From positions 62,043 to 126,042 of the forward strand of contig JAOPTW010000011.1 of assembly GCA_051532035.1 (NCBI GenBank): a DNA stretch of 64,000 bases. Direction: 5' to 3'. Below the pieces are notes generated by a model. That model saw only the letters and a list, made by a program, of their open reading frames with translations. It searched no databases and was not told the DNA's origin. Shown one piece after another: positions 35,403 through 62,405 of the stretch. Every line of letters begins with the position of its first letter. The first letter of the stretch is position 1. Position numbers and translations under genes: made by a program. Origin of the DNA: Fibrobacterales bacterium (GTDB taxonomy: Bacteria > Fibrobacterota > Fibrobacteria > Fibrobacterales > JAOPTW01).

Positions 35403-35457
35403 AAATATTCCCTGTTAGCACAAGTAATCATTATGTTAAATCATACCCATGCCTGTC

Positions 35458-35598
35458 CTAAGCCAACGTTTCCTTGTCGTTCTTATCCTCTTCACCCATC
35501 GCCTTCAACCTTTTCTTCTCCTTGTGGTAACACTCTCCCCAATACTCTTTATTAACCTCATCACCGTTTGCGCTCGTTCTACTGTTAATCTCGTACAT
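35458..35598 (-). pseudogene. 46-codon chimeric remnant combining a piece related to gene 41348..41851 with the tail of the 272-aa multi-copy family
   Basis: My translation: MYEINSRTSANGDEVNKEYWGECYHKEKKRLKAMGEEDKNDKETLA*. Nucleotides 35519-35570 are ~80% identical to 41431-41480 (GDEFSKEYWEECYHK). Nucleotides 35455-35515 are ~75% identical to the 3' ends at 54658 and 58202 (..KKKRLKA.G..GK.RLA*). Confidence 0.5.
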
Positions 35599-39846: not shown

Positions 39847-40491
39847 ATGAAGCAGATACTGTATTTTGTGATACTCTTGCCAATCATTGAATTGATTGTT
39901 GCCTGTTGTCATTCGAGTCCTCATACTTACGTAGTAGACCCAGGAGTCCCAGCAATTTCCATTATTGATTTTCGTGGGGAAGCCCCCGAGGACGTGACCG
40001 GTTTTGGAGTCGGGAATAAAAGTTTGGGTATTAGACTTGAGTTAGCACTGGAGGTTGTTGAAAATTTAGAGGTAGCAATGGTAGGGAGTAGTGTGTATGC
40101 GACTACATGCCCAATGCCAGAGCTCAACTATCAACACATCGACTCAATAAGTGATATTGTTTTTAAAACAGTGTATTCGCTGAATGACTCTGTTCCAGAA
40201 GGTTCAGATATCACTCATTTATTCAAAGGTTTTGTAGATAAGTCGGGAAAACCATTGTATCAATATCAGTCCATTCAACGTTTTCTTGATCATCAGTATC
40301 TACAGGCAAGCTACAAAAACGATTTTTCATCAGAATTGAAAGTGTACTATGATTTTATGCTCATGACTGATATCACAAATAATGTAGTCAAGCTTGAGGT
40401 CGAAATCACACTCACCAATGGAAATACTTTTTCTTTAGAAACTACAGAAGTAACCGTCGACCAAATCGCCCTTCTATCGGTACAGTATTGA
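39847..40491 (+). CDS. Lipoprotein, function unknown
   Basis: The track start 39841 is TTG. ATG 39847 gives MKQILYFVILLPIIELIVACC (lipobox). 4-nt overlap with the next gene. Confidence 0.6.
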   Translation: MKQILYFVILLPIIELIVACCHSSPHTYVVDPGVPAISIIDFRGEAPEDVTGFGVGNKSLGIRLELALEVVENLEVAMVGSSVYATTCPMPELNYQHIDSISDIVFKTVYSLNDSVPEGSDITHLFKGFVDKSGKPLYQYQSIQRFLDHQYLQASYKNDFSSELKVYYDFMLMTDITNNVVKLEVEITLTNGNTFSLETTEVTVDQIALLSVQY

Positions 40492-41288
40492 TGAAATTAG
40501 TATTCACAAGTGTGCTTTGCTTTTGTTTGACGGGGGTACCGGTTCTAGGGAGTGATTTATTAGATTCGTTTACGTTACGCGAATGTAGGTACAATATGTC
40601 AATAGGGGGGCATGGTTATATATCCAATGTTCCTACTCATACAAAAACAGACCCTGTTATCAATACGCTATCAGGTGGTATCTATTTTAGCCCAATATCC
40701 GTGAGTCTAATCTGGCAATCAAGTTTGGGAGTGACGGGATCAATATCAGCAATCAGAGAATCATCATTTTACAGTGCTCCTAATCTAGATACTGTAAACG
40801 CTAAAGAATACCCAGAGTTTTACAGTAGTGGATCTTTCTTGAGAGATCAAACAACCAAAAAAGGCTTTTCCCCTTCATTCCTTGTAATGGCTGGCCCATT
40901 ATATAAGCACACGTATTCAGATACAAAGACGTCTGTTACAGGATCTATCCAAATTGGGCTGCATACAATAGACATACGAGATACAGAATTTTATTTGAAA
41001 GAGAAAAACACTCATACTATTGTACACCACTCTTACACAAAAGAGGACTCAGAGGTATCATATCTACTCCTTGCTGACCTACTCTATGGTATTGAATGGA
41101 AAAAGAATATCGAATTCACCTTAGGGTGCTCATATAGTGTCACCTTTTTGGATCTCACTATTCTTGATACAGAACGTAATTTAGTTACCGAAACAAATAC
41201 TGTTACACGCTATCACTATGATAAACCAATACATTCACTTATTCTAAAAGTGGGAATGTCTATAGAGATCGCGCACCTATTACCCTAG
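40488..41288 (+). CDS. Secreted protein, possibly an outer-membrane beta-barrel
   Basis: Signal peptide. Alternating-hydrophobicity strands throughout. ATGA overlap with 39847..40491. Its 3' end is duplicated at 46187-46273. Confidence 0.6.
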   Translation: MMKLVFTSVLCFCLTGVPVLGSDLLDSFTLRECRYNMSIGGHGYISNVPTHTKTDPVINTLSGGIYFSPISVSLIWQSSLGVTGSISAIRESSFYSAPNLDTVNAKEYPEFYSSGSFLRDQTTKKGFSPSFLVMAGPLYKHTYSDTKTSVTGSIQIGLHTIDIRDTEFYLKEKNTHTIVHHSYTKEDSEVSYLLLADLLYGIEWKKNIEFTLGCSYSVTFLDLTILDTERNLVTETNTVTRYHYDKPIHSLILKVGMSIEIAHLLP

Positions 41289-41347
41289 CTAATGATATTT
41301 GTTTTTCTTTTATGTCGGCTGGGCGTTACTCAGTCTGAGGTTGTTCA

Positions 41348-41851
41348 TCACGGTATTTCGGGTGGCAAAAAGGCATCGGGAAAACGTGTCCCATACTTTT
41401 CCATAAACTTTTCTTGATCTACTTTGTGATAACACTCTTCCCAATACTCTTTACTGAACTCATCACCGCAGTGTTTGGCCAGGTTGAGTTCTGCAAAAGC
41501 TTTAAAGTAGTCTTTCATCTTCATTAACACTCTAATATGTACTGTGTTCAATTGGCTTTCGATATTGAGATCTGCATTTTCACCATCATTAAAGGTAAAC
41601 ATAAGAGCGGTAGAGCAGCAGTCTTTTGCGTCGTCATATTTTTTGAGTTGTTCAAAGCAGAGTGCCTGGTGAAGGAGTACTTCAGCTCTCATATCTCGTG
41701 AAAGATCATCGAGGAACTGGATTCTATTAAAATCTTCTCCAGCTTTTTCATATTCACATAAAATTTCTGAAATGCAGGCTCGTTGAAAGAGAAGGTCTGC
41801 GATGCCGATAGTGTCTAAATCTAGATGAGGAAAAATTGTACTGTAATCCAC
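41348..41851 (-). CDS. Cytoplasmic helical-repeat (TPR-like) protein
   Basis: 167 aa, all-helical, with TPR-like Ala/Tyr spacing (LHQALCFEQLKKYDDAKDCCSTAL). A fragment related to its 3' end occurs at 35519-35570. Confidence 0.55.
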   Translation of the reverse strand: MDYSTIFPHLDLDTIGIADLLFQRACISEILCEYEKAGEDFNRIQFLDDLSRDMRAEVLLHQALCFEQLKKYDDAKDCCSTALMFTFNDGENADLNIESQLNTVHIRVLMKMKDYFKAFAELNLAKHCGDEFSKEYWEECYHKVDQEKFMEKYGTRFPDAFLPPEIP

Positions 41852-42170
41852 TGTGTACCTTCTGGAGTATTTGTGATATTGAAGATACTACTATTGTTTT
41901 AAAAAAAGTACTGTCAGAATTGATGATTTTAAAATATGAGAAATTTTAGGCTGTTGGTATTAATGGACTACGCCTCCTTAAAGAGTAACAGTACTTTGAC
42001 TGTTTCGATTACAAGATTGTACAAGGTAATGATTTGTCTATACAGCTTTGTTAGTCTGGCGAATGAATGGTAATGAGGTTCTATATTCAACAGTAGGTTG
42101 AGACAGAATGGATCTGACACACATATAGATGGCCATTACATTGAGGGTCAAACAGTATAAAAGGAAAAAT

Positions 42171-43148
42171 ATGAATACAATAAAATGGGGACTTGTTGGC
42201 ATCGCGATATCGTTGTTCGTGGGCTGTGACCTAATGAACGATGAATCAGGGGATGCTGCAACGGGGAGTAATGCTGATTCAGCAAGTGCGCGTGATGAAG
42301 TAATTGCTGCTGATAGTCTGGTGACTTCGTTGCTTAATGAAAATGATGAATGTGTGTCTGTGGAGTGCCTTGCTGCAAAAGATAGCTTAGCGATGGCGGC
42401 ACAGAATTTACAGACGGTTATTGAGGGCGGGTCGTATGTTCATACAGTAATGGCCTATGATAGAGACAGTGTATCGATTTCGGGTGATACTATTACCGTT
42501 TTCGATAAAGATTATAGCTGTGATAATGATGTTATTTCTTCCTATAACTATAAGAATAATCATCTATTTACTCTAACAAACAATACACTTTCTATTCAAG
42601 AAGAGTGGGAGTGTGAAAAAAAGCATTTTAGTGGAACGGGTACCACTCCATTGGGATCGTGGAGTTATACTGGAGAAGACTATATGCTTGATAGCTTAAA
42701 TTGTACTGGTGAGAGAGACGGTATCTCTTTTGAAACGTATAAACTATCAGAAGAGTTGAATATTACTGAGACTCAATTTGAACGCGTAAGAAGCTGGAAT
42801 TTTAATTGTTATGTTGATGATTTTGCAATAGAGCATGAGTATAGTGATAGACCAGAAACCTTTGAAAAAGTGGATTGTAGTACGTGGACACTTTCTATTA
42901 ACGGAAAAGTATCTACAGAGAGTATTACATTTGCACCAACTCTTGTGACAGAAACAAAAACCATTACTTACAAAACGCATAATTGTACTGAGAATGACAT
43001 GAACGAGATGGATAGAAGAAACCTTCCGGTTCCCACAACTTGTGCCGACCTACAGGATGATGGTGAAGATGCAAATGAGTGTATGCAGGCTCTTTTTACA
43101 GAATACTGTCTGGACTTTCCTGAGTCTAATAGTTGTGGTGATCACTAA
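42171..43148 (+). CDS. Cys-rich lipoprotein, function unknown
   Basis: The internal ATG at 42171 (RBS AAAGGA) gives MNTIKWGLVGIAISLFVGCD (lipobox). Many paired Cys residues. Confidence 0.65.
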   Translation: MNTIKWGLVGIAISLFVGCDLMNDESGDAATGSNADSASARDEVIAADSLVTSLLNENDECVSVECLAAKDSLAMAAQNLQTVIEGGSYVHTVMAYDRDSVSISGDTITVFDKDYSCDNDVISSYNYKNNHLFTLTNNTLSIQEEWECEKKHFSGTGTTPLGSWSYTGEDYMLDSLNCTGERDGISFETYKLSEELNITETQFERVRSWNFNCYVDDFAIEHEYSDRPETFEKVDCSTWTLSINGKVSTESITFAPTLVTETKTITYKTHNCTENDMNEMDRRNLPVPTTCADLQDDGEDANECMQALFTEYCLDFPESNSCGDH

Positions 43149-43172
43149 TTAAATTATTGTATTGTTATGTAG

Positions 43173-43203
43173 AGCACTCATCAATCGATGGGTGCTTTTT
43201 TTG
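43173..43203 (+). terminator. Rho-independent terminator
   Basis: 10-bp stem agcactcatc / gatgggtgct with one G-U pair, loop aatc, then an 8-T run. Confidence 0.85.
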
Positions 43204-43227
43204 TATCGGTGTAGTGGCTGAACTTAT

Positions 43228-43320
43228 AATACCTAATGTATCCTTCTAACACAATGTGGGCTCAATTGTGGGCAAGGGAATGGGCAAGGGAATGGGCAAG
43301 GGTATTGGTTGGGAGACTCC
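43228..43320. repeat. Junction motif R1, copy a (AATACCTAATGTnTnnTTCTAACACAATGTrrG plus ~60 nt shared with copy c)
   Basis: Matches 53381-53470 over ~90 nt and 47176-47215 over ~35 nt. Confidence 0.85.
43270..43305. repeat. 12-nt microsatellite (GGGCAAGGGAAT)x3
   Basis: gggcaagggaat gggcaagggaat gggcaagggtat. The homologous copy at 53427-53438 has a single unit. Confidence 0.9.
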
Positions 43321-43424
43321 ATGGTTGTGAAGGGACGAATATACTTTGTAGAACCCACCCATCCATGAGTTGCTGATTTTACTATATTCAGCATATGTTT
43401 TATTGCAACTAATGGGTCACACAT

Positions 43425-43934
43425 ATGTCTTTACAGCAAATATCATATTTGATTATTCGAATATATACTTTTTACCAAATAATTATCCACTTGATTTCTG
43501 GTGTTACGATTTTTGGACAAATGGTTTTTTATAACGGAGATGAATATGGAGACTATATGTCGGGGAACTTTTATTCCGGTTTATTCTTTAGTATAGTACT
43601 CACTGGTATATTCGTTTTATTATTTAAAAATGCTGAAAAGTTGAGTTCCTTCTTAATTAAGCAAGATGATGAAATAGATGTAAATTTGGGTTTTGTTCGT
43701 GATATTTCATTAAAAATTGTTGGTGCATTTGCAGTTGTATTCTCTTTGCCTGAGGTTGTAGAAAAGATAAGTACATTAGTTTTTAAGTATCAATTGCTTG
43801 GTTTGTCTGATTTCAAGCCTTTTGATTTTTGGCCAAGTTTTATCGCTCATGGTGTAACTTTGGCATTAGGTGGATTGATAATAAAGGGTGATATCGCATT
43901 TGTCAAACCAAATAACAAGCCGGTAGAGGGGTAA
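43425..43934 (+). CDS. Small membrane protein (4 TM)
   Basis: 169 aa with hydrophobic helices. Bounded by R1 upstream and R2/R3 downstream. Confidence 0.55.
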   Translation: MSLQQISYLIIRIYTFYQIIIHLISGVTIFGQMVFYNGDEYGDYMSGNFYSGLFFSIVLTGIFVLLFKNAEKLSSFLIKQDDEIDVNLGFVRDISLKIVGAFAVVFSLPEVVEKISTLVFKYQLLGLSDFKPFDFWPSFIAHGVTLALGGLIIKGDIAFVKPNNKPVEG

Positions 43935-43937
43935 CTA

Positions 43938-44007
43938 TAGTGGCCGCTCATTTGAGACACCCGAAACTGATTTTTTAATTATAAACGAATCGATTTTCCA
44001 TGATACA
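43938..44007. repeat. Junction motifs R2+R3, copy (GTGGCCGCTCATTTGAGACAC + CCGAAACTGATTTTTTAATTATAAACGAATCGATTTTCCATGATACAG)
   Basis: ~80% identical to 58058-58133. R2 alone also occurs at 43212-43230 and 53046-53068. Confidence 0.8.
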
Positions 44008-44159
44008 GAAAAAATTCTTCATTAAATGGATATTTTGACCTGAGACAAGGGGCTCCGGTGAACGTTGGATATGGGAATTGGCAGTGCCTCTATTGGGGAG
44101 GCTGCATGAATATGCAGAGACGAAATGTAATAGAAGATTGTGGAATAAGGAAGAAAATA

Positions 44160-44642
44160 TTATTTGATTTTAATGAATCCATCCCAGTATATAATATCTA
44201 AAGTGTCATTATAAACTTGATAACCATATGCAGTGGCTGGATTATTACACCAATCTTCAGTGTGACGGGAAAGTTCATTTGTGTTAGATTGGTCAAAATC
44301 TAGCTTCTCTAAATATTGGTTGTATGTTACCACCTCATTTAATTCTGTGTTATATTCCCAGGGAATGCATATGTATTGTTTGTCGCTTAAAAGGTTATTG
44401 TTATCTATAAAGTATGGATAATATACAGTGTCAGTTTCTGTATGGATAGATAGTATTGAATCTGAATTTATTATTAATGTATCATTCCAGCCTAATTTAT
44501 CACGATATCCAACTACTCCTTCATGTGATCTAAAAAAATTAACGTATGTACCATAAATACTGGGTTTACTATTGCTTGTATTTTGGGTGATACATGAGCT
44601 GAATATTATGATAATAAGTGCTGATAATAAAAGAAATTTCAT
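44160..44642 (-). CDS. Small lipoprotein, function unknown
   Basis: Lipobox IIFSSCI. 160 aa. Confidence 0.6.
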   Translation of the reverse strand: MKFLLLSALIIIIFSSCITQNTSNSKPSIYGTYVNFFRSHEGVVGYRDKLGWNDTLIINSDSILSIHTETDTVYYPYFIDNNNLLSDKQYICIPWEYNTELNEVVTYNQYLEKLDFDQSNTNELSRHTEDWCNNPATAYGYQVYNDTLDIIYWDGFIKIK

Positions 44643-44841
44643 AATGATTTATTCGTATTTTGAGAGTTGTTCATAGCTAATGTAGTAATTGTTGTTTTGT
44701 TTTACATCGAGTAAGAGTACAGACTTCATTCTATCGGTGGTGTCAATATTTGGCGAACTGAATGTATCTTTGGTCAAGTGGGATGTTTCCTAAATGTCGC
44801 GTTAGTGGGGGTGTGGTACCTCTATTGCGAATCACACCAAG

Positions 44842-45141
44842 TTACAGCGCCCTACGCAACTCAGTCATTTGGTCCACTACCTCCTTGCCATCTGTACCCT
44901 CAACCCCCACCGCCTTCAACCTCTTCTTCTTTAAATACTGCAGCCTCGCATACTGGCTATTAAACTCCTTGCGTACTTCTGGGGAGTCTTGAAAGGCTCC
45001 ATCTATCCAGTTTCTAATCTCTCGTTCAGTTGTTCGTAGGAGTGAAATACACTGGTCGCGGATGGTTTTGTAATCAGTTGCTAGTGGGAACGCTCTCCCG
45101 AGTAAGGCAAGTTCTACGATATTTTTCAGCACACCGTCCAT
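44842..45141 (-). pseudogene. Truncated, internally deleted copy of the 272-275-aa multi-copy gene family
   Basis: MDGVLKNIVELALLGRAFPL|ATDYKTIRDQCISLLR..IRNWIDGAFQDSPEVRKEFNSQYARLQYLKKKRLKA matches aa ~152-172 and ~205-262 of 54658..55485. It lacks the N-terminal 150 aa and the central block. Confidence 0.75.
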
Positions 45142-45234
45142 AGTTTTTGGTCGTGCTAGAATTTGTTATAGGTAGCATTAAGGGGACTAATATTTTAGAT
45201 TTAGTAAAGACGTCATTTAACTTGCTCAAAAGTC

Positions 45235-45741
45235 ATGAATCATTTCAGTGTGCCAAAAATAATAGTATTTCTTCTCGTATTCGTTGGCATGTCGATATGT
45301 AATGAAATAGGGGTGAAGTTTCGATCGATTAACCCAAGTAGTGATAACATAATTTCAGTATCATTTCCTGATATCGTTTATAAAGTAAATATTGGTGACC
45401 GTTACTCAATAGGTATTGTTTTTGAAGAGGATGTATATAGTTCAGTATTTAGCGAAAACGAATATACTGCAGCTTTTTCATCATTTTTTGAGTTTAGGTC
45501 TCAAAACAAAATAGGTTTTGAATTTGAACATGGTCCTGGAATACGTGTAAAATATTCAAATTATAATTCTGAGTTTAAGTTGGTACCCGCTGTCATGTAT
45601 TTGTTAGAACTGAATTATTATTTTAATGAGGATGTTTATGTAGGACTGGGAGGCCGTCCATATCACGAATGGGATATTTGGGAAAAGAATATTCAAGCTA
45701 ATCTCCCCGCTTTGGATTTAGGTCTACTATACTGTTTTTAG
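45235..45741 (+). CDS. Small secreted protein, beta-barrel-like (C-terminal ...GLLYCF)
   Basis: Signal peptide, alternating hydrophobic strands, terminal Phe. Confidence 0.55.
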   Translation: MNHFSVPKIIVFLLVFVGMSICNEIGVKFRSINPSSDNIISVSFPDIVYKVNIGDRYSIGIVFEEDVYSSVFSENEYTAAFSSFFEFRSQNKIGFEFEHGPGIRVKYSNYNSEFKLVPAVMYLLELNYYFNEDVYVGLGGRPYHEWDIWEKNIQANLPALDLGLLYCF

Positions 45742-45893
45742 ATATAGCAAACATGGGAACGGTATCTGCTACCCATAAACTATGACTCTATATCAAATCA
45801 AGGATAACGTCAATGGGTAGGTGTTGTAAACTAGCTTTAGGAAGTCTCATTGAGTAGGGTTTGAGTGAATATGCTCAGCCACTATAGGAATCA

Positions 45894-46145
45894 CTATTTA
45901 GCCTTTAACTTTTTAAGAAATTTATCAACTGACTTTTTATAAGAGTTATCATATTTCTTTTCGCAGGTTAACATTTTGGCAAAAAGATCGGTAGCACCAA
46001 TATAATAGGTGACACACCCTGTGCCATCATCTTTGTGGGCTCTTAGCTTTTCAAAGGGCTTCCCTTTAAGTTTATTATACACTTTGCCATTAGGGTAGTA
46101 GGAGGCGAAGTCTTTTACCGTTTTACGTGAACTTTTCCCTTTCAT
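45894..46145 (-). CDS. Small basic hypothetical protein (83 aa)
   Basis: Lys-rich and without a signal peptide. Support is the ORF itself and codon-usage appearance only. Confidence 0.4.
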   Translation of the reverse strand: MKGKSSRKTVKDFASYYPNGKVYNKLKGKPFEKLRAHKDDGTGCVTYYIGATDLFAKMLTCEKKYDNSYKKSVDKFLKKLKAK

Positions 46146-46186
46146 TTTAGTTGAATAGGGGCCATAGGTAATGTGGTATTACTATA

Positions 46187-46273
46187 ATAAACCAACGCAT
46201 TCTCTCATTCTCAAAGTGGGAATGTCTATCGAGATAGCACACTTGTTACGCTAGCTAAAGATATTTGTTTTTC
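46187..46273 (+). pseudogene. 3'-terminal remnant of a paralog of gene 40488..41288
   Basis: 87 nt, ~85% identical to 41221-41307. That region covers the last ~22 codons, the stop and 20 nt downstream (..aagtgggaatgtctat.gagat.gc.cac.t.ttac.ctagctaa.gatatttgtttttc). Confidence 0.8.
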
Positions 46274-46435
46274 ATATATATATGAAAACGTCGCTATATA
46301 GAATGTCTCAAGCGGCATTGTATAATGATTCACCAACAGGAGGCGGAGGCTATTTGTAGTCATGTATATTGGGGATGTATATTTTCTGTTCAGGTTTCTA
46401 TTATTAAGTAATTGGTACTATTAATGGTTTATTAC

Positions 46436-47197
46436 ATGAGATTTCTATTCCTATTAGCGTTATTTATGACTCAGTGTAGTACAATGCTATTGAGTAAACT
46501 TCCTACTACTGAGATTAAGTATAAAGAGTCCTATCTCAGTGGTACTATTGCAGGCATTCCTCCTTCATTTGATGTTGAAGTGTTATTAGATCATCATAAA
46601 AGTAATGGAGAAATAGTAGCAGACTCATTTCTAATCATGAGTTCTGATGTGAATTCACAAGAATTTTTACTCATACTTGAGCCTGGGAAGTGGGAAATTA
46701 TCAGTTTCAGGTTTATAAAAATGAAAGAGTTTCCTGAGCATGCACCTGAATCGAGTGGTCCTTACTTTATCATGGACTGTACTCTTATGGATAGGCCCAA
46801 TATTACTCTAGAGATTGAAGAGGACGCTATTAATGACTTAGGAGCGTTACAATTTGTTGGGTTACCTGATTTGGAAGTATTGGCAGCAAAGGATATTGAG
46901 GGGTTTCTTTCACAAGACACATTTCCACGGCAATATACTGAGCGTAGAGCAGCCTTTTCAATAGAGTTTACCTCATTCACAGATTTAGAGATGCAGTACG
47001 AGATTGAGTATGCCCAAAAGTTTGAGATGAAGTTAAATCCTCTCACAGCAAAAGCAAATTTTGAGACTAACGTTAAGTATTTTGGCATTCAGATGTGGGA
47101 TCCTTCTCAAATTGTAGAACAGGGAGGTGGCCGTTTTAACCATGATCCATTTAATATGACTAATCCTTCTCCATCAATACCTAATGTCTCATTCTAA
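46436..47197 (+). CDS. Lipoprotein, function unknown; its 3' end runs into junction motif R1
   Basis: The track start 46412 is TTG. ATG 46436 gives MRFLFLLALFMTQCS (lipobox). The last 8 codons are encoded by R1 copy b (47176-47215). Confidence 0.6.
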   Translation: MRFLFLLALFMTQCSTMLLSKLPTTEIKYKESYLSGTIAGIPPSFDVEVLLDHHKSNGEIVADSFLIMSSDVNSQEFLLILEPGKWEIISFRFIKMKEFPEHAPESSGPYFIMDCTLMDRPNITLEIEEDAINDLGALQFVGLPDLEVLAAKDIEGFLSQDTFPRQYTERRAAFSIEFTSFTDLEMQYEIEYAQKFEMKLNPLTAKANFETNVKYFGIQMWDPSQIVEQGGGRFNHDPFNMTNPSPSIPNVSF

Positions 47198-47337
47198 CAC
47201 AATGTGAGTTCTATAATTCCCATAATGAAGGGGGTTGCCTCCTACTGATACACAAGTGTTACTGGGCTTAAGAGCAGGCAACGATTTTTTCTAGAAATGA
47301 AGAAGAAAATCGCTCCGTACAATTCGCCAAATGCTTC

Positions 47338-50300
47338 CTACTCAAATGATACTATAAATACGCCTTTCGGTAATGAACTGGAAAGAGAGAGTGTCTCTTT
47401 CTCTACTGTGCCAGACTGTATCAGGGCACCCCGAATACTATAGAGTCTAAACGTTTTTGAATTACGTGGTACGGCAAGGAGGTGTGAACTTCTTTTAATA
47501 TTATTAATGAGCTTCACCGATGAGAATTGAGAGGTGCTTTGAGTATAAGTAATCGCTGTAAGGGCTGATGAGAGAGGAGCGCTGGTGCCTGAAACGAGTA
47601 CCCCCGATGAAGGTGTCATTGTATTCTGAAAAGAGCTGCCGTGATTTCCAGAGTTTGGAGGTATTTCAAATGAGCTACTGGTGTCAGCTACATAAGAAAT
47701 CCCCGGTACGTTATAGTCTGCTGAAGAAGTGAGTGTTTCATCGGTATCATCAGAACTAATCTGTTCCGTATCAGAATATACATCAATCGTCATGATTACT
47801 GGTGCACTCGTGTCTCCAGCTGCAAATGCACGTACCGGTACGTGAAGTCTACCGGTATATTCCTGATTCGGAGTGACCCTCTGGTTGTTAATGGTGTAGT
47901 GCTCTCCAGGCTCTAACAAGAGTGTGATAGCGTCTCTATCCTGGTCTTGTGCATCCGTCATAGCAAGAGTAACTGTAAGGCTGCTATTGAGAGGTATTGT
48001 TTGAGGTGTAGTATGGGTAAGAGTAGGTGGGTAGAGGACAGGGATGACAAAAACTGATAGATACCTTGTGTTACTTGTATCAGAGCCGGAAATGGCTCTT
48101 ACAGGGACATTCAGGGTGCCGCTGTAATTATTTGATGGAATTACTCGATTGTCATCTATAGTATAGCGGTAACCACTTGAAGGTATAACTTTATCTATTG
48201 TGTCACCTTCAAGGTCGATTATTTTAACCATGCTTGGGAGTAATGTGAGAATAGAATCTTCCTTGATTGTTTGTGTTCTAGTGGAGATAAGTGTCGGCGG
48301 GTCGTTTACCGGAGTCACTATAATCGTCATATCAATCGGGGGAGATTTATAACTATATCGGGAAACATAAAGTGGTACCGTCAATATTCCATTGAAATTA
48401 TCATCAGGGATTATGGTTAAATAGGAAACAGTGTAATTGTCACCACTTTGTACATTCAAATAAAAGGGGTCACCATCTATATCTTGGGCGTCAGTCATTG
48501 CAGAGGTGACTGTTAAAGTACTGTCTTCTGGAATTGTCCTCATTTGCGCTGTAGTAATTGTCGGATTGTCTTGTCTACCTCTCACATATATTTCAATAAC
48601 AGAGGTGTCAGAGTCACTATTATCAGTGAGCTGGTACCAGAGAGTGTCAGTTCCATACCAGTCTTTGTATGGTGTGTAGTAGAGAGTATCATTTTGATGC
48701 ACAAAGGTTCCATGGTGGGGAATACTGTCATTTAAAAGAGTAAATGTAAGTGGGTCGCCATCCGGGTCATATCGGTTTGAATTCAGATTATTAGTGGTAA
48801 ATGATGTTAAGGAATCCTCATAGCCATAGCGCGTTATTACATGAGCATTGGGAGGGTTATTTTTGCCCTGCGTTACTACCAGTATTGCCTGATTGCCCCA
48901 TAAGGTATCACCTGATTCAAGTTCTTCTCCTATGCGGTAGCGTAGAGAGTCGACAGTTCCTATAGGGGTATCATCTATAAAGGAGATGTTGTGTAAGGAG
49001 TCAATAAACATATCTCCAAAGAGGCTATCAACGTGTACCACCAGGCTGTCGCCATTTGATTCAATGTCATAGTCATTTTGCAGTACTTGATTGAATGGTG
49101 TTGTCTGCAGGGCAATTATTGAATCTCTAAAGGCCATAGGAGCATTATTTATGTTTAATAGTCCCGCATAGGTTTGAGTGCTTTTTATGATCCAGTCTGA
49201 ACCAAAAGACCATGTACTATATGAACTCTGTTGCCGAAGCTGATCGGTGGTTAACGGTGTGCCCAAAGCAGATGCTGTCTGGTTCGATGTTTCGGTATTC
49301 CAATAGCTCTCAGGTGAACTTATACTGGTGCTACCAACGAGCCCGCCAACAGTATTTTTGCCCCAAACGACACCTGTGCTGTAGCTTTGAAAAATAGTTA
49401 AACCTCCAGAGCCGACTAAGCCACCGACAGTAGTGTTGCCGCTCACTGTTCCAGTATTATAGGTGTTGCTGATCTCCGTATCAAGGTCTCCAACAATTCC
49501 TCCAACGATACTGGTTCCATGGACGTTCCCTGAATTGTAACTCTGGAGAATAGTATGACTTTCTCCTGCTATACCACCTACTCTCTTGCCACCCTTTATG
49601 CTGCCAGTATTAAAGGAGTAAGATATGGTGTCGTCATTGAGGCCTGCTATGCCGCCTACCTGCTCTGAACCGTTAATAGGAGAGATATTAAAAGTATGTA
49701 TGATTTTTTCATAATTTCTACCGGCAATTCCGCCCGTATTTTCTTGACCCTCAATTATTCCTTTGTTGCTGCTATAAGAAATTATGCCATAGTTTAATCC
49801 GGCAATTCCACCGGTAGCATGGCTGTAGTGAGAACTTTTTTCTTGTATATGCGCTTCGTTATAGGAGTGAGATATGGTCCCCCGGTTGGAGCCTGCAATG
49901 CCCCCTACAGTGTATGCGGTTGAGATTACCGACCCTTTGCAGTGTGAATACTGTATTGTACCTTTATTAACTCCTGCAAAGCCACCGACAAAATTCTTTC
50001 CTGTTATTTCAACAGCAAGTCCCAGGCTGTCTACATGAGCGGCTGAGTCTATTGCAGAAAACAAGCCGATATAATCTTCGTTCTTGTGGTTTATGAAGAG
50101 GTTCGAAATGGTGTTGCCGGCTCCATTAAAATAACCAGAGAACCCTCCGGTACCGTAGCCTATCGGAGAAAAACCGAAGCCATGATTGTCGGTTTTTGAG
50201 TCTGTTGCATCAATGTTTTGTGTTAACCTGTATGAACCGTAGAGTGGGTGAGTCGATACATTTCCAATCTTTTTAAGGTCTTCATAGGTTGCAATAGGGA

Positions 50301-52863
50301 TAATGGTATCGATAAAAGGCACTGCGATACTACTCCAGTTACCCCATAGTATGGCTCCCGATGTTAATTCTTCTCCCGGTCGATAATAACGATACAGTGA
50401 ATCTCGTGTTTCATTAATAGAGGAATAGGGTATTTCTATAGCTTTTGTAACAGGTGTATCGTCGGGATCAAAATCATTTTGAATAAAAACAGATAAGTCT
50501 ATTGGGTTATTCAGAGACTGAACTGAATCCATAAAACCGATGGGGGCATCATTGACACCGCGTAAACCCGGAAAACTTTGACCCTCATGTAACTCCCAGA
50601 TAGTGGTACGGTCCCAAGGAATAAATGGGTCCAGTTGTTTCATGCGATCCGTATTCAGGGGAGTACCGCCCCCTGAAGAGTCTATACCGGAGGTTTCTAT
50701 GTTCCAATAGCCTGATCCGTTACCACGTCCCGGTGCGCTTCCGGAATTGTCAGCACCGATTAATCCACCAAGATTACTGATACCGATAACTTTTCCGGTA
50801 CTATAACAGCGGGTGGTCGTCTCACCGTTTACTCCTACGAGCCCCCCGATGTTGTAATTGCCCTGAACAGCCGCAGTGCTGTAGGCGTTCCGGATTGTGT
50901 CCTGGTTACTTCCGGTGAGGCCCCCAATGTTGTTCCTGCCTTTCACAAATCCGGTTGAGTAACTCTGTGAAATAATACCGAGACTCGTTCCGGCATAAAC
51001 GCCTACATAGTTATTTCCAATTATTGTTCCTTCTGTTCCAAGGCTGTCAATTCGAGCAGTCTCTCCAAGTGTGCTGAATAATCCAACGTTGTCTTCTGTT
51101 GGTCTATTAATGTATAGGTTGGTAATAACATATCCTGAACCGTTAAATGAGCCGGAAAAATGTCTAGAGATTGTACCTATAGGGTCGAACCCTGCGCCGT
51201 TATTTTCATAGTGAGAAGCAGATGCGTCAATATTTTGAGTCAATCGATAATTGATGTTTAAGGGGTAACGCCAATGTTTTCCTATGCGTTTAAGCTCCTC
51301 GTAGGATGAAATGGTAATTTCTTGCTGCGTAAAGGGCATTGATATATGGACAGATCCACCCCACAGAGTGTCTCCTGAAGGAGTGATCTCTCCAGGACGG
51401 TAGAATATGTAGAGTGAGTCGACATCGTTAGGAATTGAGTCTATTTCAGGAATCATTTTTGAATATTGGTCGTATTTTACGAGCGTAACGTGAGGAATTT
51501 CAGCATCAAAATCATTGTTGAGAAAAGGGGAGTAGTCTATAGGGTCAGTAAGTGCAGGGGAAATGTCTGGAAAGCCAAATGGAGCATTGTTAAAGGTTGC
51601 ATCATTTAGAGCAGGATACGTCTGGTTGTTTGGGTTTTTCCAAATGGGAAGAGACCAATTAAAGTGGGAGGTGAGCTGTTTTAATCCCTGCGTAGTAAGT
51701 GAAGTCGCGGTAAGAGGTGTACTGCCATGGGGGTTTGACCCGACAGCGGAATCAAGGGTGGATGTCTCTCTGTTCCAGTAATTATTGGTAACTGTGGCAT
51801 GATAGAAGTCGAGCCATGCGGTGCCGACAAGGCCTCCAATTGACACATTTCCAGTAATATATCCACTACTGTAACAGTTGTCTATACTTCCAAGAGTGAA
51901 TCCTATGAGCCCACCAACATCCATGTGACCATGGACACGTGCAGTACTATAACTTTGCTCGACAATGTAGTTGTAAGGAAAGCCGGAAGAGGCATCGTTG
52001 CTACCTATAAGGCCTCCAACGCTCTGATATCCTTCCACAGGTCCCGTACTGTAACAACGATTAACGGAACCTCTATTGGAACCTATGATGCCACCCACAC
52101 TGTATTTACCTGTAACTGTTCCTGTTGAATAACTTAATTCCAGTAATCCGTCGTTAAATCCGGTAATGCCCCCAATTGTTCTCTCGCCATGTATTGCACC
52201 AATATTATAGCTTGATAGTATTGTACTTCTGTTTTGACCGGTAATACCGCCGATATCTTCTTTGCCCTGAATAGAACCTCTGTTGATGCACGCTTTAAAG
52301 GTAAATTTTGTGCTATAGCCGGATATTCCCCCCACGCGCCGTTCTCCATTTACACGCGCTTCATTTTGTACATTATAGATGGTGCTGTTGAGTATTCCGG
52401 CAATACCTCCAACATAGTCTTTTCCGGTAATTTGACCGGTTATCGTCAGGTTTGCTATATGCGAAGTAGTGTCTCTATTTGAAATACTATCCAATAGAGC
52501 AAAAAGTCCAATGGTATCCTGATGAGGGCGGTTGATGTATAGATCGGTGATTTTAAAGTTTTTACCATCCAGCCATCCCTTAAATGGACGTTTAGTTCCT
52601 CCGATTGGTGCAAAGCCTTTTCCACTGTTTTCATTGAGCGAGGCTGAAGCATCAATATCGTTTGTTAATATGTAATATGCGGTGAGGTTGCTATCTACTT
52701 GCTTTAAGTCAGCATAATCAGCAATTTCATAGGGATTACTTTTGAACCCTGAACCGGAGAGTTGCCCATCGACGGCATGGGTTGTACCCATACTGAGTAA
52801 AATGATGTAGAGTATTGAGGGAAAAGCATGATCTTGTAATAGTAATTGGAATATAGCTTTCAT
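47338..52863 (-). CDS. Giant (1841 aa) surface protein with three GLUG-repeat modules, cadherin-like/tandem repeats, a Ser-rich linker and a T9SS-type C-terminal domain
   Basis: Signal peptide. A ~370-aa module (Y[EA]DLK.[IV]....Y.LT[NQ][DN]IDA[ST].S then many [VI]GG[IL][IVT]G GLUG motifs) occurs three times. Repeats are bounded by NNPPNA, QDNPTI, VNDPPTL, LYPPTL. Tail: FRLYSIRGALIQSG...LPKGVFIVSFE. Confidence 0.85.
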   Translation of the reverse strand: MKAIFQLLLQDHAFPSILYIILLSMGTTHAVDGQLSGSGFKSNPYEIADYADLKQVDSNLTAYYILTNDIDASASLNENSGKGFAPIGGTKRPFKGWLDGKNFKITDLYINRPHQDTIGLFALLDSISNRDTTSHIANLTITGQITGKDYVGGIAGILNSTIYNVQNEARVNGERRVGGISGYSTKFTFKACINRGSIQGKEDIGGITGQNRSTILSSYNIGAIHGERTIGGITGFNDGLLELSYSTGTVTGKYSVGGIIGSNRGSVNRCYSTGPVEGYQSVGGLIGSNDASSGFPYNYIVEQSYSTARVHGHMDVGGLIGFTLGSIDNCYSSGYITGNVSIGGLVGTAWLDFYHATVTNNYWNRETSTLDSAVGSNPHGSTPLTATSLTTQGLKQLTSHFNWSLPIWKNPNNQTYPALNDATFNNAPFGFPDISPALTDPIDYSPFLNNDFDAEIPHVTLVKYDQYSKMIPEIDSIPNDVDSLYIFYRPGEITPSGDTLWGGSVHISMPFTQQEITISSYEELKRIGKHWRYPLNINYRLTQNIDASASHYENNGAGFDPIGTISRHFSGSFNGSGYVITNLYINRPTEDNVGLFSTLGETARIDSLGTEGTIIGNNYVGVYAGTSLGIISQSYSTGFVKGRNNIGGLTGSNQDTIRNAYSTAAVQGNYNIGGLVGVNGETTTRCYSTGKVIGISNLGGLIGADNSGSAPGRGNGSGYWNIETSGIDSSGGGTPLNTDRMKQLDPFIPWDRTTIWELHEGQSFPGLRGVNDAPIGFMDSVQSLNNPIDLSVFIQNDFDPDDTPVTKAIEIPYSSINETRDSLYRYYRPGEELTSGAILWGNWSSIAVPFIDTIIPIATYEDLKKIGNVSTHPLYGSYRLTQNIDATDSKTDNHGFGFSPIGYGTGGFSGYFNGAGNTISNLFINHKNEDYIGLFSAIDSAAHVDSLGLAVEITGKNFVGGFAGVNKGTIQYSHCKGSVISTAYTVGGIAGSNRGTISHSYNEAHIQEKSSHYSHATGGIAGLNYGIISYSSNKGIIEGQENTGGIAGRNYEKIIHTFNISPINGSEQVGGIAGLNDDTISYSFNTGSIKGGKRVGGIAGESHTILQSYNSGNVHGTSIVGGIVGDLDTEISNTYNTGTVSGNTTVGGLVGSGGLTIFQSYSTGVVWGKNTVGGLVGSTSISSPESYWNTETSNQTASALGTPLTTDQLRQQSSYSTWSFGSDWIIKSTQTYAGLLNINNAPMAFRDSIIALQTTPFNQVLQNDYDIESNGDSLVVHVDSLFGDMFIDSLHNISFIDDTPIGTVDSLRYRIGEELESGDTLWGNQAILVVTQGKNNPPNAHVITRYGYEDSLTSFTTNNLNSNRYDPDGDPLTFTLLNDSIPHHGTFVHQNDTLYYTPYKDWYGTDTLWYQLTDNSDSDTSVIEIYVRGRQDNPTITTAQMRTIPEDSTLTVTSAMTDAQDIDGDPFYLNVQSGDNYTVSYLTIIPDDNFNGILTVPLYVSRYSYKSPPIDMTIIVTPVNDPPTLISTRTQTIKEDSILTLLPSMVKIIDLEGDTIDKVIPSSGYRYTIDDNRVIPSNNYSGTLNVPVRAISGSDTSNTRYLSVFVIPVLYPPTLTHTTPQTIPLNSSLTVTLAMTDAQDQDRDAITLLLEPGEHYTINNQRVTPNQEYTGRLHVPVRAFAAGDTSAPVIMTIDVYSDTEQISSDDTDETLTSSADYNVPGISYVADTSSSFEIPPNSGNHGSSFQNTMTPSSGVLVSGTSAPLSSALTAITYTQSTSQFSSVKLINNIKRSSHLLAVPRNSKTFRLYSIRGALIQSGTVEKETLSLSSSLPKGVFIVSFE

Positions 52864-53045
52864 AGGAATCTCGATTTTATATAATACCAGTTATGGTGAT
52901 TTACTGAGCCGAAGTGTAAAATGGGATTAAAATACCCAATTAATAGATGGATCAAATATAAAAACTTGATGCTGAATGTTAATGTTTACTCTTAGTAAGC
53001 GCCTCGTCTTTGTTTGTGTTTTTCCCTTTGTAACGCCCCCTTAAA

Positions 53046-53068
53046 GAGGCCGCTTATTTGAGATACAC
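53046..53068. repeat. Junction motif R2 copy
   Basis: gaggccgcttatttgagatacac, compared with gtggccgctcatttgagacac at 43938. Confidence 0.6.
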
Positions 53069-53090
53069 TATCTTTTATAGTGCCCGACGT

Positions 53091-53382
53091 AACCTCTCCT
53101 TCCCATCCTTACCTTCAACTCCCTGCGCCTTCAACCTCTTCTTCTTTAAATACTGCAGCCTCGCATACGGGCTATTAAACTCCTTGCGTACTTCGGGGGA
53201 GTCTTGAAAGGCTCCATCTATCCAGTTTCTAATCTCAACTTCAGATTGTCTGAGGAGTGAAATACACTGGTCGCGGATGGTTTTGTAATCAGTTGCTTGG
53301 AACCTCTCTGCATGGGCGAGGACTTTGAGTTCACGGAGTTCTGTTACGAGGGCGTCAGCTTCATCCCAGAGGTGAGTATCAA
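53091..53382 (-). pseudogene. 5'-truncated copy (about the C-terminal 95 codons) of the 272-275-aa multi-copy family; normal stop lost
   Basis: The minus-strand translation ..DTHLWDEADALVTELRELKVLAHAERFQATDYKTIRDQCISLLRQSEVEIRNWIDGAFQDSPEVRKEFNSPYARLQYLKKKRLKAQGVEGKDGK.. is collinear with 54658..55485. Homology stops at gtatcaa|tacctaatgt, exactly where R1 copy c begins. Confidence 0.8.
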
Positions 53383-53470
53383 TACCTAATGTATTCTTCT
53401 AACACAATGTAGGCTCAATTGTGGATATAGGAAAGGGCAAGGGTATTTGTTTGGAGATCGAATAGTGTTT
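53381..53470. repeat. Junction motif R1, copy c
   Basis: aatacctaatgtattcttctaacacaatgtaggctcaattgtgg... matches 43228-43320. Confidence 0.85.
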
Positions 53471-53569
53471 CAGGGAAGAAAATGTTTTTGTTGAAACCCA
53501 CCGTCTATGGCGGGTTTGAGTTTTTATATTTACAAGAATATTATTCTTTATTTGAAAATTGAGTTTCCT

Positions 53570-54142
53570 ATGAATACAATAAAAACTAAGGTTACGGAAA
53601 GTATTTTTTTGACAAACGCTTGGGTATATTTACTCGTGCTTGTTCTTTTACCGATCGCTAATAAAATTTTTGCACAACATTTTTCAAGTGACTTTATCTA
53701 TAAAGTCTCTGCCAATAACTACTTTAATCCTGTAAGTATTTTCATTACCATTTTGGTTAAAGCGATTTGGTATGTTTGGATTTGGTGTATAGTAATTGTA
53801 TTTTCTCAATCGACCAAAAAACAATTGAGGAAAAGTCTTGGGTTGTTTAAGGTGGCATTTGTTTTGGCTGTAATATGCAATATGTGCTTTTCAGAAGTTG
53901 TTTTATATTATATCGACCGAATAATTGAACTGAAAGTTGTATTGGGAATTTTCATTGTATCGATGGTTTTTATTAGTTGGGAGGCGGCAAAACAACTTAG
54001 AAGCTTTGAACTTGGGCGATTAAGTACTTTCAAAGAAACATTTAGTTCCTTTGTTGCTGTTTTGTTTTTACCTCTGGGAGTCTTTTGGTTGCAACCAAAA
54101 TTAAAGGTTTATTGGAATACATTAATTAAAAGATCTTTATAA
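53570..54142 (+). CDS. Membrane protein (5-6 TM), function unknown
   Basis: Hydrophobic helices throughout. ATG 53570 (MNTIKTKV..) is preferred over ATG 53507, but both are possible. Confidence 0.55.
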   Translation: MNTIKTKVTESIFLTNAWVYLLVLVLLPIANKIFAQHFSSDFIYKVSANNYFNPVSIFITILVKAIWYVWIWCIVIVFSQSTKKQLRKSLGLFKVAFVLAVICNMCFSEVVLYYIDRIIELKVVLGIFIVSMVFISWEAAKQLRSFELGRLSTFKETFSSFVAVLFLPLGVFWLQPKLKVYWNTLIKRSL

Positions 54143-54263
54143 CAATTCATTGGAGCGGTATCACTGATGATCCGTTCAAATTTGAAGTTATTTCTATCAC
54201 TGAGTAACTCTTTTCCAATTTGATTCGTTTAATATTCAGCTCGTTTTTATTCCATTGGTAAAT

Positions 54264-54626
54264 ATGTCAAAAGTTGTAGTTCTCGTTTTATGTACCTTAA
54301 TTGTTTTGGGGTGTCAGAATAATGGCGATGATGATATCGTAGGGGGACCTTGTACGTATGAGTACACGGAAGGTACTTTACATATAACTAATATTGACAC
54401 TACCTTATTTGATCACGGAATGGTTATAGATATGATATATGAGTCAAGTGACATTGATTTAATGGATAAATTATACCTCAATAATGAATGTGTGATAACC
54501 TCTGGGGTATCTGTAGGGGATACTATAGTGGGTGGGAAATATGAAATAATGACGGGAACTTGTGCCCCAAGGCACTACGAAAGTAATGCTTTTGATAGTG
54601 TTTCTTGTGGTGAAGTGATTTGGTGA
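54264..54626 (+). CDS. Small lipoprotein, function unknown
   Basis: The track start 54255 is TTG. ATG 54264 gives MSKVVVLVLCTLIVLGCQ (lipobox). Confidence 0.6.
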   Translation: MSKVVVLVLCTLIVLGCQNNGDDDIVGGPCTYEYTEGTLHITNIDTTLFDHGMVIDMIYESSDIDLMDKLYLNNECVITSGVSVGDTIVGGKYEIMTGTCAPRHYESNAFDSVSCGEVIW

Positions 54627-54657: not shown

Positions 54658-55485
54658 CTAAGCCAACCTCTCCTTCCCATCCTTACCCTCAACACCCTGT
54701 GCCTTCAACCGTTTCTTTTTCAAATACTGCTGCCTTGCATACTGGCTATTAAACTCCTTGCGTACTTCGGGGGAGTCTTGAAAGGCTACATCTATCCAGT
54801 TTCTAATCTTAACTTCAGTTGCTCTGAGGAGTGAAATACACTGGTCGCGGATGGTTTTGAAATCAGTTGCTTGGAACCTCTCTGCATGGGCGAGGACTTT
54901 GAGTTCACGGAGTTCTGTTGCGAGGACGTCAGCTTCATCCCAGAGGTGCGTATCAAAAATGACGGGGGAGTTGTCGAGGGGGAGTGCTCTGCCGAGTAAG
55001 GCGAGTTCTACGATATCTTTCAGCACACCGTCCATAGCTTTTGATTTATTAAAAGAGATGATCCGTTTAATATGGCGTGGTTCTTTCATGCACACCAGTT
55101 TTAATATTTTAACCATCTTAGAACGCAGCTCCTTGGCTTCAGGGGCGCGCTGTGTCCAGAGGTCGCGGTCGGTGGTTTCGGTACGTAACTTTTGCTTAAA
55201 GAGTATGTCGGCATGCTGTGCGGCCCGAGACTGCATGATTGCTTTATGCGCGGTCTCTTTGCTAAACCCAAAGGTCTTGAGTGCTTTTAAGTGATTGAGT
55301 GCAGTCTTACCCAGTTCCTCTACTTCAAAGAGGTACGTATCGATACGCATTGAGGGAATGTGGAGTGCATTGGTCGGTTGCGCAGTGATCTCGTCGATAA
55401 TAAGGTCATAACACGCCTCAGGTTGGTCGGGAACCTCAGAGCTGGGCCTGGTATAGGGGCTTTTGCTATCGTTTTTGCTACTCAT
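54658..55485 (-). CDS. Uncharacterised 275-aa helical cytoplasmic protein, multi-copy family, full copy 1
   Basis: GAGGGAG RBS 5 nt upstream of the ATG. aa 1-157 differ at one residue from copy 2 (58202..59020). A central block is divergent and the C-terminal block is conserved. I recognise no catalytic or DNA-binding motif. Confidence 0.8.
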   Translation of the reverse strand: MSSKNDSKSPYTRPSSEVPDQPEACYDLIIDEITAQPTNALHIPSMRIDTYLFEVEELGKTALNHLKALKTFGFSKETAHKAIMQSRAAQHADILFKQKLRTETTDRDLWTQRAPEAKELRSKMVKILKLVCMKEPRHIKRIISFNKSKAMDGVLKDIVELALLGRALPLDNSPVIFDTHLWDEADVLATELRELKVLAHAERFQATDFKTIRDQCISLLRATEVKIRNWIDVAFQDSPEVRKEFNSQYARQQYLKKKRLKAQGVEGKDGKERLA

Positions 55486-58201: not shown

Positions 58202-59020
58202 CTAAGCCAACCTCTCCTTCCCATCAACACCCACCGTCTTCAACCGTTTCTTTTTCAAATACTGCTGTCTCGCATACGGGCTATTAAACTCCTTGCGTAC
58301 TTCTGGGGAGTCTTGAAAGGCTACATCTATCCAATTTCTAATCTCGACTTCAGTTGCTCTGAGGAGTGAAATACACTGGTCGCGGATGGTTTTGTAATTC
58401 GTTGCACGGGACCGCTCTACTATAGCGAGCTTTTTGAGATCACGGAGTTCCGTTATGAGGGCGTCTGCTTCATCCCAGATGTGAGTATCAAAAATGACGG
58501 GGGAGTCTTCGAGGGGGAGTGCCCTGCCGAATAGAGCAAGGTCGGTGAGGTCTTTTAACACACCGTCCATCGCTTTTGATTTATTAAAAGAGATGATCCT
58601 TTTAATATGGCGTGGTTCTTTCATGCACACCAGTTTTAAAATTTTAACCATCTTAGAACGCAGTTCTTTTGCTTCAGGGGCGCGCTGTGTCCAGAGGTCA
58701 CGGTCGGTGGTTTCGGTGCGTAACTTTTGCTTAAAGAGTATGTCGGCGTGCTGTGCGGCCCGAGACTGCATGATTGCTTTATGCGCGGTCTCTTTGCTAA
58801 ACCCAAATGTCTTGAGTGCTTTTAAGTGATTGAGTGCAGTCTTACCCAGTTCTTCTACTTCAAAGAGGTACGTATCGATACGCATAGAGGGAATGTGGAG
58901 TGCATTGGTCGGTTGCGCAGTAATCTCGTCGATAATAAGGTCATAACACGCCTCAGGTTGGTCGGGAACCTTAGAGCTGGGCCTGGTATAGGGGCTTTTG
59001 CTATCGTTCTTGCTACTCAT
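58202..59020 (-). CDS. Uncharacterised 272-aa helical cytoplasmic protein, multi-copy family, full copy 2
   Basis: Same RBS and 5' region as copy 1. Mosaic identity pattern relative to copy 1. Lies immediately downstream of the left 21-bp repeat array. Confidence 0.8.
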   Translation of the reverse strand: MSSKNDSKSPYTRPSSKVPDQPEACYDLIIDEITAQPTNALHIPSMRIDTYLFEVEELGKTALNHLKALKTFGFSKETAHKAIMQSRAAQHADILFKQKLRTETTDRDLWTQRAPEAKELRSKMVKILKLVCMKEPRHIKRIISFNKSKAMDGVLKDLTDLALFGRALPLEDSPVIFDTHIWDEADALITELRDLKKLAIVERSRATNYKTIRDQCISLLRATEVEIRNWIDVAFQDSPEVRKEFNSPYARQQYLKKKRLKTVGVDGKERLA

Positions 59021-62400: not shown

Positions 62401-62405
62401 TTGGA

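Follow-up and report, generated by a model that had tools for sequence, protein, structure and literature searches.

R1, a lineage-restricted junction repeat in a hypervariable gene island of a deep-sea Fibrobacterales bacterium

The BIMEs of E. coli are composed of REP units and linker motifs, and the NIMEs of Neisseria of RS blocks and dRS3 repeats. Here we describe R1, a short repeat in a 64-kb stretch of Fibrobacterales DNA (the window), whose nearest counterparts in behavior are the linker motifs of BIMEs and NIMEs together with the core repeats of integrative elements. As in BIMEs and NIMEs, the modules are short (tens of bases), non-coding and reordered between genes; hairpin modules, here a module T and the terminator of a module R2, are combined with non-palindromic linkers, here R1; and the modules are lineage-specific with sharp edges. 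R1 departs from those systems in that it is non-palindromic, has three copies clustered in 10 kb rather than dispersed, and overlaps a coding end with one copy and truncates a gene with another; no RAYT-type transposase was seen and R1 has no sequence similarity to known families.

The comparison with attL and attR cores also cuts both ways. Direct copies of 33-46 nt bracket multi-kilobase segments and one copy rebuilds the 3′ end of a gene, which is frequent in att cores, but no integrase was found within the segments or close to them, the core lacks dyad symmetry, the opposite arms are unrelated and no empty site was observed. R1 has in common with integron attC sites a conserved sequence at joints and an upstream stop in a TCTAAC-like motif resembling the RYYYAAC inverse core, whereas IntI, an imperfect palindrome and a folded bottom strand are all lacking, and the genes between the copies are in mixed orientation, one of them 5.5 kb long. 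We considered R1 as an attC site and rejected the assignment: TTCTAAC is one mismatch from RYYYAAC, with no GTTRRRY partner in hairpin register and no symmetry. Like the termini of IS elements and MITEs, R1 has a fixed end that meets varied neighbors, one of them a truncated gene, but we found neither a terminal inverted repeat nor a convincing target duplication, nor a transposase in 64 kb, and the repeat reaches to the right over differing lengths, 39 nt in copy b as against ~150 nt in copies a and c. R1 also contains CTAATGTAT, which resembles the center of the E. coli dif site; identity with a dif/Xer site (28 nt, two inverted arms, located at the terminus) was rejected, as there was no match to the XerD arm, no dyad and no switch of cumulative GC skew in the window.

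In the rAID clusters of Bacteroidales, a tyrosine recombinase gene precedes a run of short genes that share one orientation and have conserved motifs between them (PMC12247911). The present locus belongs to the same superphylum and has short ORFan genes, conserved intergenic motifs and gene fragments; in contrast to rAID clusters, neither a tyrosine recombinase (in the 64 kb) nor immunity-type domains were detected, and its genes are in mixed orientation from 43 to 59 kb, with co-orientation and repeated spacers only at 60-64 kb. We conclude that R1 lacks the tested defining features of attC sites, IS and MITE ends, dif and rAID clusters.

Copies of R1, their extent and their authenticity

The 33-nt pattern that defines R1 matches the window exactly at 43228-43260, 47176-47208 and 53381-53413, always on the + strand, and nowhere else in the 64 kb with up to 3 mismatches (Table 1). 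These are the places that a preliminary description had given for it, and they held up, with 0 matches in 100 dinucleotide-preserving shuffles and with agreement from a second assembler. The three copies are thus direct repeats, all within 10 kb. A profile built from them found no weaker copies in the window or the fetched loci, neither half of R1 alone occurred above chance frequency in the window, and R1 was not found in the related contigs L009, L012 and L013 (~38 kb together). An R1-like stretch near position 11830 of L009, spotted by eye, was not supported by the profile search. No match to R1 was obtained in public genome contigs, metagenome contigs (searched with each motif half) or viral contigs, nor to an R1-R2 query in plasmid and phage collections. 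By these searches R1 appears to be lineage-specific, with no sequence relative in any collection searched.

Table 1. Positions of R1, its adjoining modules, neighboring genes and the contigs of a second assembly
Feature	Position	Strand	Remarks
R1 copy a	43228..43273	+	33-mer plus 'CTCAATTGTGG' common to copy c; intergenic
R1 copy b	47173..47214	+	~39 nt alone in common with a and c
R1 copy c	53378..53426	+	adjoins 5′-truncated 272-family fragment
R2 after copy a	43262..43376	+	perfect 12-nt x 2.8 tandem repeat 43269-43302; terminal hairpin decayed
R2 after copy c	53415..53527	+	terminator-like hairpin 53497-53520, then T-rich tail
R2 in contig L009	L009 3385-3505	-	R1 absent; module T directly precedes
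Module T	47270..47324	+	hairpin repeat 55 nt past R1b
Other module T copies	window 57915-57964; L009 2309-2363; L009 3515-3562
Intrinsic terminator, strong	43171..43198	+	belongs to gene 42171-43148, upstream of R1a
ORFan gene OCD01_04145, 253 aa	46436..47197	+	3′ end is R1b
1841-aa Ig-like/cadherin-like/GLUG gene	47338..52863	-	with 272 fragment fills 6.2-kb R1b-R1c segment
Full 272 copy A	54658..55485	-	breakpoint reference
Full 272 copy B	58202..59020	-
272 3′ fragment (C-terminal ~100 codons)	53091..53382	-	homology to full copies ends at R1c
Second 272 3′ fragment	44881..45149	-	internal deletion corresponds to 54872-54968 of copy A; no R1 adjoining
272 3′ tail	35457-35517		intergenic remnant
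Logan contig L016	window 41926-44940		spans R1a; 100% identical
Logan contig L010	window 45409-53155		spans R1b; 100% identical
Logan contig L011	window 53353-54686		spans R1c; 100% identical

R1 is about 33-46 nt long and non-coding. Its left edge is sharp and identical in all three copies and no similarity was found among the three left flanks; with only three copies from one genome, statistics on this edge are weak. To the right, copies a and c remain alike, with 66 nt at 88% identity by self-BLAST, in line with the further ~60 nt previously reported for this pair, and a weaker likeness out to ~150 nt by global alignment. R1 and the 11 nt that follow are identical at 42 of 44 positions, whereas the rest of the common unit is 78% identical and has many 1-nt indels. 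Because the identity is uneven and interrupted by several 1-nt indels, the R1-R2 unit common to a and c is taken to be non-coding, and R1 is its best-kept part, better conserved than R2.

Within R1 there are direct repeats (ACCTAATGT and ACACAATGT), together with direct AATGT repeats, and no dyad symmetry. DNA folds of both strands of the three copies gave no significant hairpin (z-scores -1.7 to +0.4) and no stem common to copy b. A check for an inverted partner, proposed in the preliminary description, found none in the window, either by pattern with up to 3 mismatches or by profile search. In copies b and c, each of the six reading frames is stopped within 35 nt, a property of 0.35% of the 35-nt windows of this sequence.

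The source sample was a biofilm degrading cellulose 'transparent paperboard' at 855 m depth, for which DNA reads (SRR21695763), RNA reads (SRR21695762) and a community assembly (JAOPTP) exist (PMC11980830). A 'Fibrobacterales bacterium' MAG carries the 272-family proteins of the window as OCD01_04165 and OCD01_04175, on a 140-kb contig. The second assembly used for comparison consisted of Logan contigs, built by a different assembler from the same reads and so representing one read set. These contigs were 100% identical to the window and reproduced all three R1 copies and their junctions. The first 30-mer of the contig that spans copy c ends in ..GTATCAA, which is the fork expected in the graph between the path into R1c and the full 272 copies, and the contigs pass straight through R1a and R1b with no branching. 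As the window is from a metagenome-assembled genome, where chimeric joins are possible at repeats, R1 might be an assembly artefact or a chance repeat; however, no match is expected by chance from the shuffles and the other assembler recovered every copy and junction without a mismatch, and we give this explanation practically no weight. We conclude that the R1 junctions are real, within what one read set can tell. The contig spanning R1b begins inside gene 45235-45741, 260 nt past the nearest known repeat, and this start at 45409 may reflect a population polymorphism or a drop in coverage.

Sequences adjoining the three copies

All three copies had been proposed to sit exactly at gene-truncation breakpoints, which proved correct for one copy (c), possibly for two, and incorrect for copy a. 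Copy a lies 29 nt downstream of the intrinsic terminator of an apparently complete gene and there is no gene breakpoint at that place. An ORFan gene has its last 7 codons (S-IPNVSF; of the first, a single base) and its TAA in copy b, so that the stop codon this copy was said to supply is confirmed and the 8 codons originally counted are reduced by one. Since the only homolog found for the protein of this gene is the protein itself, a truncation at copy b is not demonstrable. An imperfect TTC(T)CCAT repeat flanks a 42-nt stretch at copy b and nothing of the kind occurs at a or c; the right ends are undefined.

At copy c, the 272 fragment (53091-53382) matches the full copy (54665-54956) with 93% identity and the homology ends exactly at R1, which bears out the earlier account of this junction. 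The fragment reads ..GTGAGTATCAA|TACCTAATG where the full 272 copies read ..GTATCAAAAATGACGG, and past ..GTGAGTATCAA the fragment continues into R1 and the full copies into AAATGACGG. ATCAA occurs both in the 272 gene and at the left edge of R1 in copy b (CCATCAATACC), where it precedes R1, so that the join at copy c has a 5-nt overlap. From these alignments, gene truncation is demonstrable at copy c only.

The manner in which R1 ends the frame in copy b (..IPNVSF*) raised the question of whether R1 could be a relic 3′ gene end, that is, seven last codons, a stop and the start of a 3′ UTR, copied along with the downstream region. In the frame of copy b, both differences between a and b in the coding part (positions 13 and 16) are synonymous, though too few to weigh, and other repeats start in last codons, at 60478 in gene 60093-60503, at 41211-41313 in gene 40488-41288 and in the 272 3′ fragments. 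There are, however, three substitutions in all, that of copy c is non-synonymous, no ORF enters copy a or c in this frame, and the same left edge must still have arisen twice; we regard a relic gene end as improbable. The repeat at 41211-41313 is 103 nt long (84%) and takes in the final ~78 nt of gene 40488-41288 together with sequence downstream of it, and its second copy (46177-46279) is intergenic, upstream of the gene that ends in R1b. A 69-nt repeat (81%) likewise occurs at 43939-44007 and 58058-58124, just downstream of two unrelated + strand genes.

R2 is rich in GGA and GGG, has a terminator hairpin at its end and lies upstream of three unrelated genes. It had been thought to be fused directly to copy a; it does adjoin that copy, but not directly, since its 12-nt repeat starts 8 nt past the 33-mer, and it also follows copy c. 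The terminator hairpin shows compensatory changes between copy c and L009, and R2 could be a small RNA or a leader. Rfam searches with R1 and R2 returned nothing at threshold, and identity of the copy c R2 with the rnk leader was rejected (27.7 bits against a threshold of 55, not reproduced in L009). The perfect 12-nt tandem array in R2 of copy a contains six G-triplets and could form a G-quadruplex.

Module T is a REP-like hairpin with a stem of ~11-14 bp around TTTTTTCTA..AAAA, has compensatory changes among its four copies and is usually found 30-110 nt past the stop of a gene. Because the modules are combined differently in the window and in L009, as R1 and R2 at copies a and c (the terminator hairpin having decayed in a), as R1, a spacer and T at copy b, and as T, R2 and a terminator in L009, we consider R1, R2 and T to be separable.

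We also considered that R1 might regulate downstream + strand genes in cis, as an operator or promoter or as the beginning of an R2 leader or small RNA, with its position at junctions being incidental. In line with such a role, R1-R2 lies ~190 nt upstream of a + strand membrane-protein gene at both a and c, the R2 terminator hairpin has been kept by compensatory changes, and R1 is conserved and carries the direct AATGT repeats. Yet promoter prediction gave no sigma-70-like call on either strand of R1. Downstream of copy b there is no + strand gene, and this copy faces a convergent gene at its 3′ end. R2 is kept in L009 without R1, and neither an Rfam family at threshold nor, in L009, the weak rnk-leader match was recovered, so that a regulatory origin seems very doubtful. 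A promoter picked out by eye (TTGTGT-17-TATTAT, minus strand, in copy a only) was dismissed, there being no sigma-70-like call.

The 272 family and the bracketed segments

The 272 family is represented by two full and three fragmentary copies. Full copies A and B have nearly identical N-terminal halves and differ in residues ~155-215. An exhaustive HMMER search gave 195 distant cluster representatives of 230-290 aa, which have no Pfam family; the family is uncharacterized and widespread. AlphaFold modeling from 60 aligned distant homologs predicted an all-alpha elongated bundle at pLDDT 93.8 (from the single sequence, pLDDT 48, the model was not usable). Foldseek found no PDB match to the model better than E = 0.27, and a search of PDB chain sequences none below E = 0.3. 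The protein was considered as a recombinase or transposase and set aside, given that the confidently modeled fold, with no PDB match, is recognizable as neither.

Two side observations concern this family. The 272 3′ tail at 35457 is part of a stretch, 35457-35566, in which it is joined to 35507-35566, a sequence that resembles the 3′ portion of TPR gene 41348-41851, and the whole looks like the relic of a chimeric gene. Directly upstream of a 272-family gene, 59040-59245 holds ~ten tandem 21-nt units (consensus near TKCTATCCATATG, with a 42-nt super-period); the other full copy is preceded by a shorter set of the units at 55500-55562, and L009 has the array conserved at 9360-9585. By its layout it looks like an iteron or operator array.

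Four rearrangement edges, belonging to different 272 copies, fall within ~30 nt, corresponding to 54951-54976: the end of the copy c fragment, the end of a fragment in L009, one edge of the deletion in 44881-45149 and one edge of a deletion in L012. The L009 fragment breaks within ~5 nt of the copy c position and is joined to unrelated DNA. Because it breaks at nearly the same base without R1, the 272 gene may itself contribute a hot spot, and the clustering suggests a fragile or preferred spot at 54951-54976, with weak statistics in that the interval was chosen post hoc and two of the fragments are possibly orthologous.

R1 could be a passive passenger of segmental duplications or illegitimate joins, with the truncation at copy c set by the fragile spot in the 272 gene. 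The edge cluster, including the edge in L009 that lacks R1, speaks for this explanation, as do the many other sharp-edged short repeat families of the island. It leaves unexplained why three copies with unrelated left flanks start at the same nucleotide and why R1 is better conserved than R2, and the breakpoint cluster is merely suggestive for the reasons just given; overall, we judge a passive origin rather unlikely.

The island that contains R1 extends over ~39.8-64 kb and is made up of small genes, mostly for predicted lipoproteins or membrane proteins that have no Pfam, PHROG or NCBIfam matches, and several further families of short, sharp-edged repeats lie in it. Pfam scans of nearly all ORFs of at least 100 aa in the 64 kb detected no integrase, transposase, HUH enzyme or other recombinase domain, and the genes between the R1 copies had no recombinase matches in Pfam, PHROG or NCBIfam. 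Copies a and b are 3948 nt apart and copies b and c 6205 nt, in the same orientation. The segment of the 1841-aa gene has the highest G+C in the window, and without this 6.2-kb segment an ordinary order of gene, R1, R2 and terminator would be left. The segment ends opposite R1 have nothing in common.

Taking an Fe-hydrogenase/MCP gene as the anchor for a syntenic locus, the nearest genome, tPB_Fibr1 (70% amino-acid identity), showed no synteny, and contig L001 has the anchor gene alone in common with the window. In the protein encoded at 37594-39558 on the - strand, an iron-hydrogenase-like domain carrying Fe-S motifs is fused to a methyl-accepting chemotaxis signaling domain; it has relatives in Treponema, Cloacimonadota and another Fibrobacterales MAG. 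L009, which is from the same community assembly, contains 272-family modules with different cargo and without R1. The equivalent of window positions 60050-63771 (3.7 kb), bracketed by a ~30-nt imperfect direct repeat, is missing from L009.

Several features of this region were recorded separately. An array of small + strand ORFs at 59960-63820 has spacer repeats of 80-340 nt, whose copies start at 60453, 62091, 62746 and 63519 and each contain a 9-bp inverted repeat, AAGTCAAGT..ACTTGACTT. One copy provides the last codons and stop of ORF 60093-60503, and a copy also adjoins a 272 pseudogene in L012. Outside the island, 7040-9718 on the + strand encodes an 892-aa protein with collagen triple-helix repeats, whose DNA contains 18-nt periodic repeats.

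The preliminary description took R1 for a site-specific recombination site or the terminus of a mobile element. R1 does behave as a junction element, with a sharp left edge, conservation and direct copies, but no recombinase or transposase was found in the 64 kb, nor any dyad symmetry or inverted partner of R1. In its fuller form the proposal is that R1 is a dedicated site, with an att-like core and tandem accretion, or the end of a non-autonomous mobile element, with the enzyme encoded elsewhere in the genome. Direct copies bracketing 3.9 and 6.2 kb are arranged as att cores are in tandem islands, and tandem accretion would explain the common left edge, the right arm common to a and c and the differing arm of b without coincidence. 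The conservation of R1 beyond that of its flanks, the 5-nt ATCAA overlap at the copy c junction and the top G+C value of the 1841-aa gene segment are also favorable. On the other side, no integrase, transposase or HUH enzyme was found in the 64 kb, R1 has neither dyad symmetry nor a hairpin and lacks an inverted partner and a clear target duplication, the ends of the segments across from R1 are dissimilar, the R2 'arm' is present without R1 in L009, where a related 272 fragment breaks at nearly the same base with no R1 at all, and genome, metagenome, viral, plasmid and phage collections hold no match. R1 is a genuine junction repeat for which a dedicated recombination site is possible, and we rate that origin as unlikely while giving it real weight. 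If excision at R1 occurs, the circle junction would read ..GAGGTGAGTATC-R1-GAGTTCTATAATTCCC and the empty site ..CCTTCTCCATC-R1-CTCAATTGTGGATATAGG.

Formation of the junctions and what it would mean

R1 is lineage-restricted and non-coding, a sharply delimited left-hand module of ~36-46 nt. It lies in an island, in a deep-sea Fibrobacterales genome, that is hypervariable and holds ORFan genes for membrane proteins and lipoproteins. The explanation we favor, tentatively and with somewhat less than even confidence, is that R1 forms the boundary of a mosaic intergenic repeat as one of its modules, and that joining took place through recombination at short homologies or at preferred sites. Unrelated segments would be joined at R1 because it offers a brief stretch of homology or is a favored place of breakage, and the host's own recombination functions, or an enzyme whose gene lies elsewhere, would carry out the joining. 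R1 may be kept more uniform than its surroundings by exchange between the copies or by a DNA-binding function. The six-frame stops of copies b and c would close any reading frame joined to them, and because these stops close any joined frame, R1 would appear to 'supply' a gene end.

However the three copies arose, two or more joins must have been made at one nucleotide beside unrelated DNA. Because of this, and because R1 is more uniform than R2, R1 is probably either a preferred joining place or a functional sequence. Short-homology recombination itself appears to be active in the island: the deletion within the 44881-45149 fragment lies between AGTTG repeats, and the fact that a ~30-nt direct repeat brackets 3.7 kb absent from L009 suggests short-patch exchange. 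The direct R1 copies and the segments they bracket fit equally well with att-like sites undergoing tandem accretion and with short-patch exchange.

Several points weigh against the boundary-module explanation, besides the weak statistics on edges that three copies allow. Two joins at one nucleotide by coincidence have a chance of roughly 5%, which a dedicated site-specific mechanism explains better; 33-46 nt is little homology for RecA-dependent exchange; REP units are palindromic and R1 is not; and no empty or alternative site was seen, the Logan contigs being unbranched at R1a and R1b.

A broader and quite speculative possibility, to which we assign a low probability, is that R1 is one junction repeat among several belonging to an undescribed cassette-exchange platform of marine Fibrobacterales. 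Other candidate junctions of such a platform would be the hot spot in the 272 gene, the ~30-nt repeat around the 60-64 kb array and the ~80-340-nt spacers of that array. Genes for ORFan surface and membrane proteins would be inserted and swapped beside 272-family genes with their 21-nt iteron-like arrays, by a recombinase encoded elsewhere in the genome or of an unrecognized type. Such a platform would work in an integron-like way with none of the integron's parts.

If R1 is only a local boundary repeat, as the boundary-module explanation would have it, it illustrates, on a small scale, the shaping of a plastic island by short repeats in a phylum that has been little studied. Were it instead a true recombination site, it would point to cassette-shuffling of surface and membrane proteins in cellulose-degrading deep-sea Fibrobacterales, without a recognizable integrase nearby.
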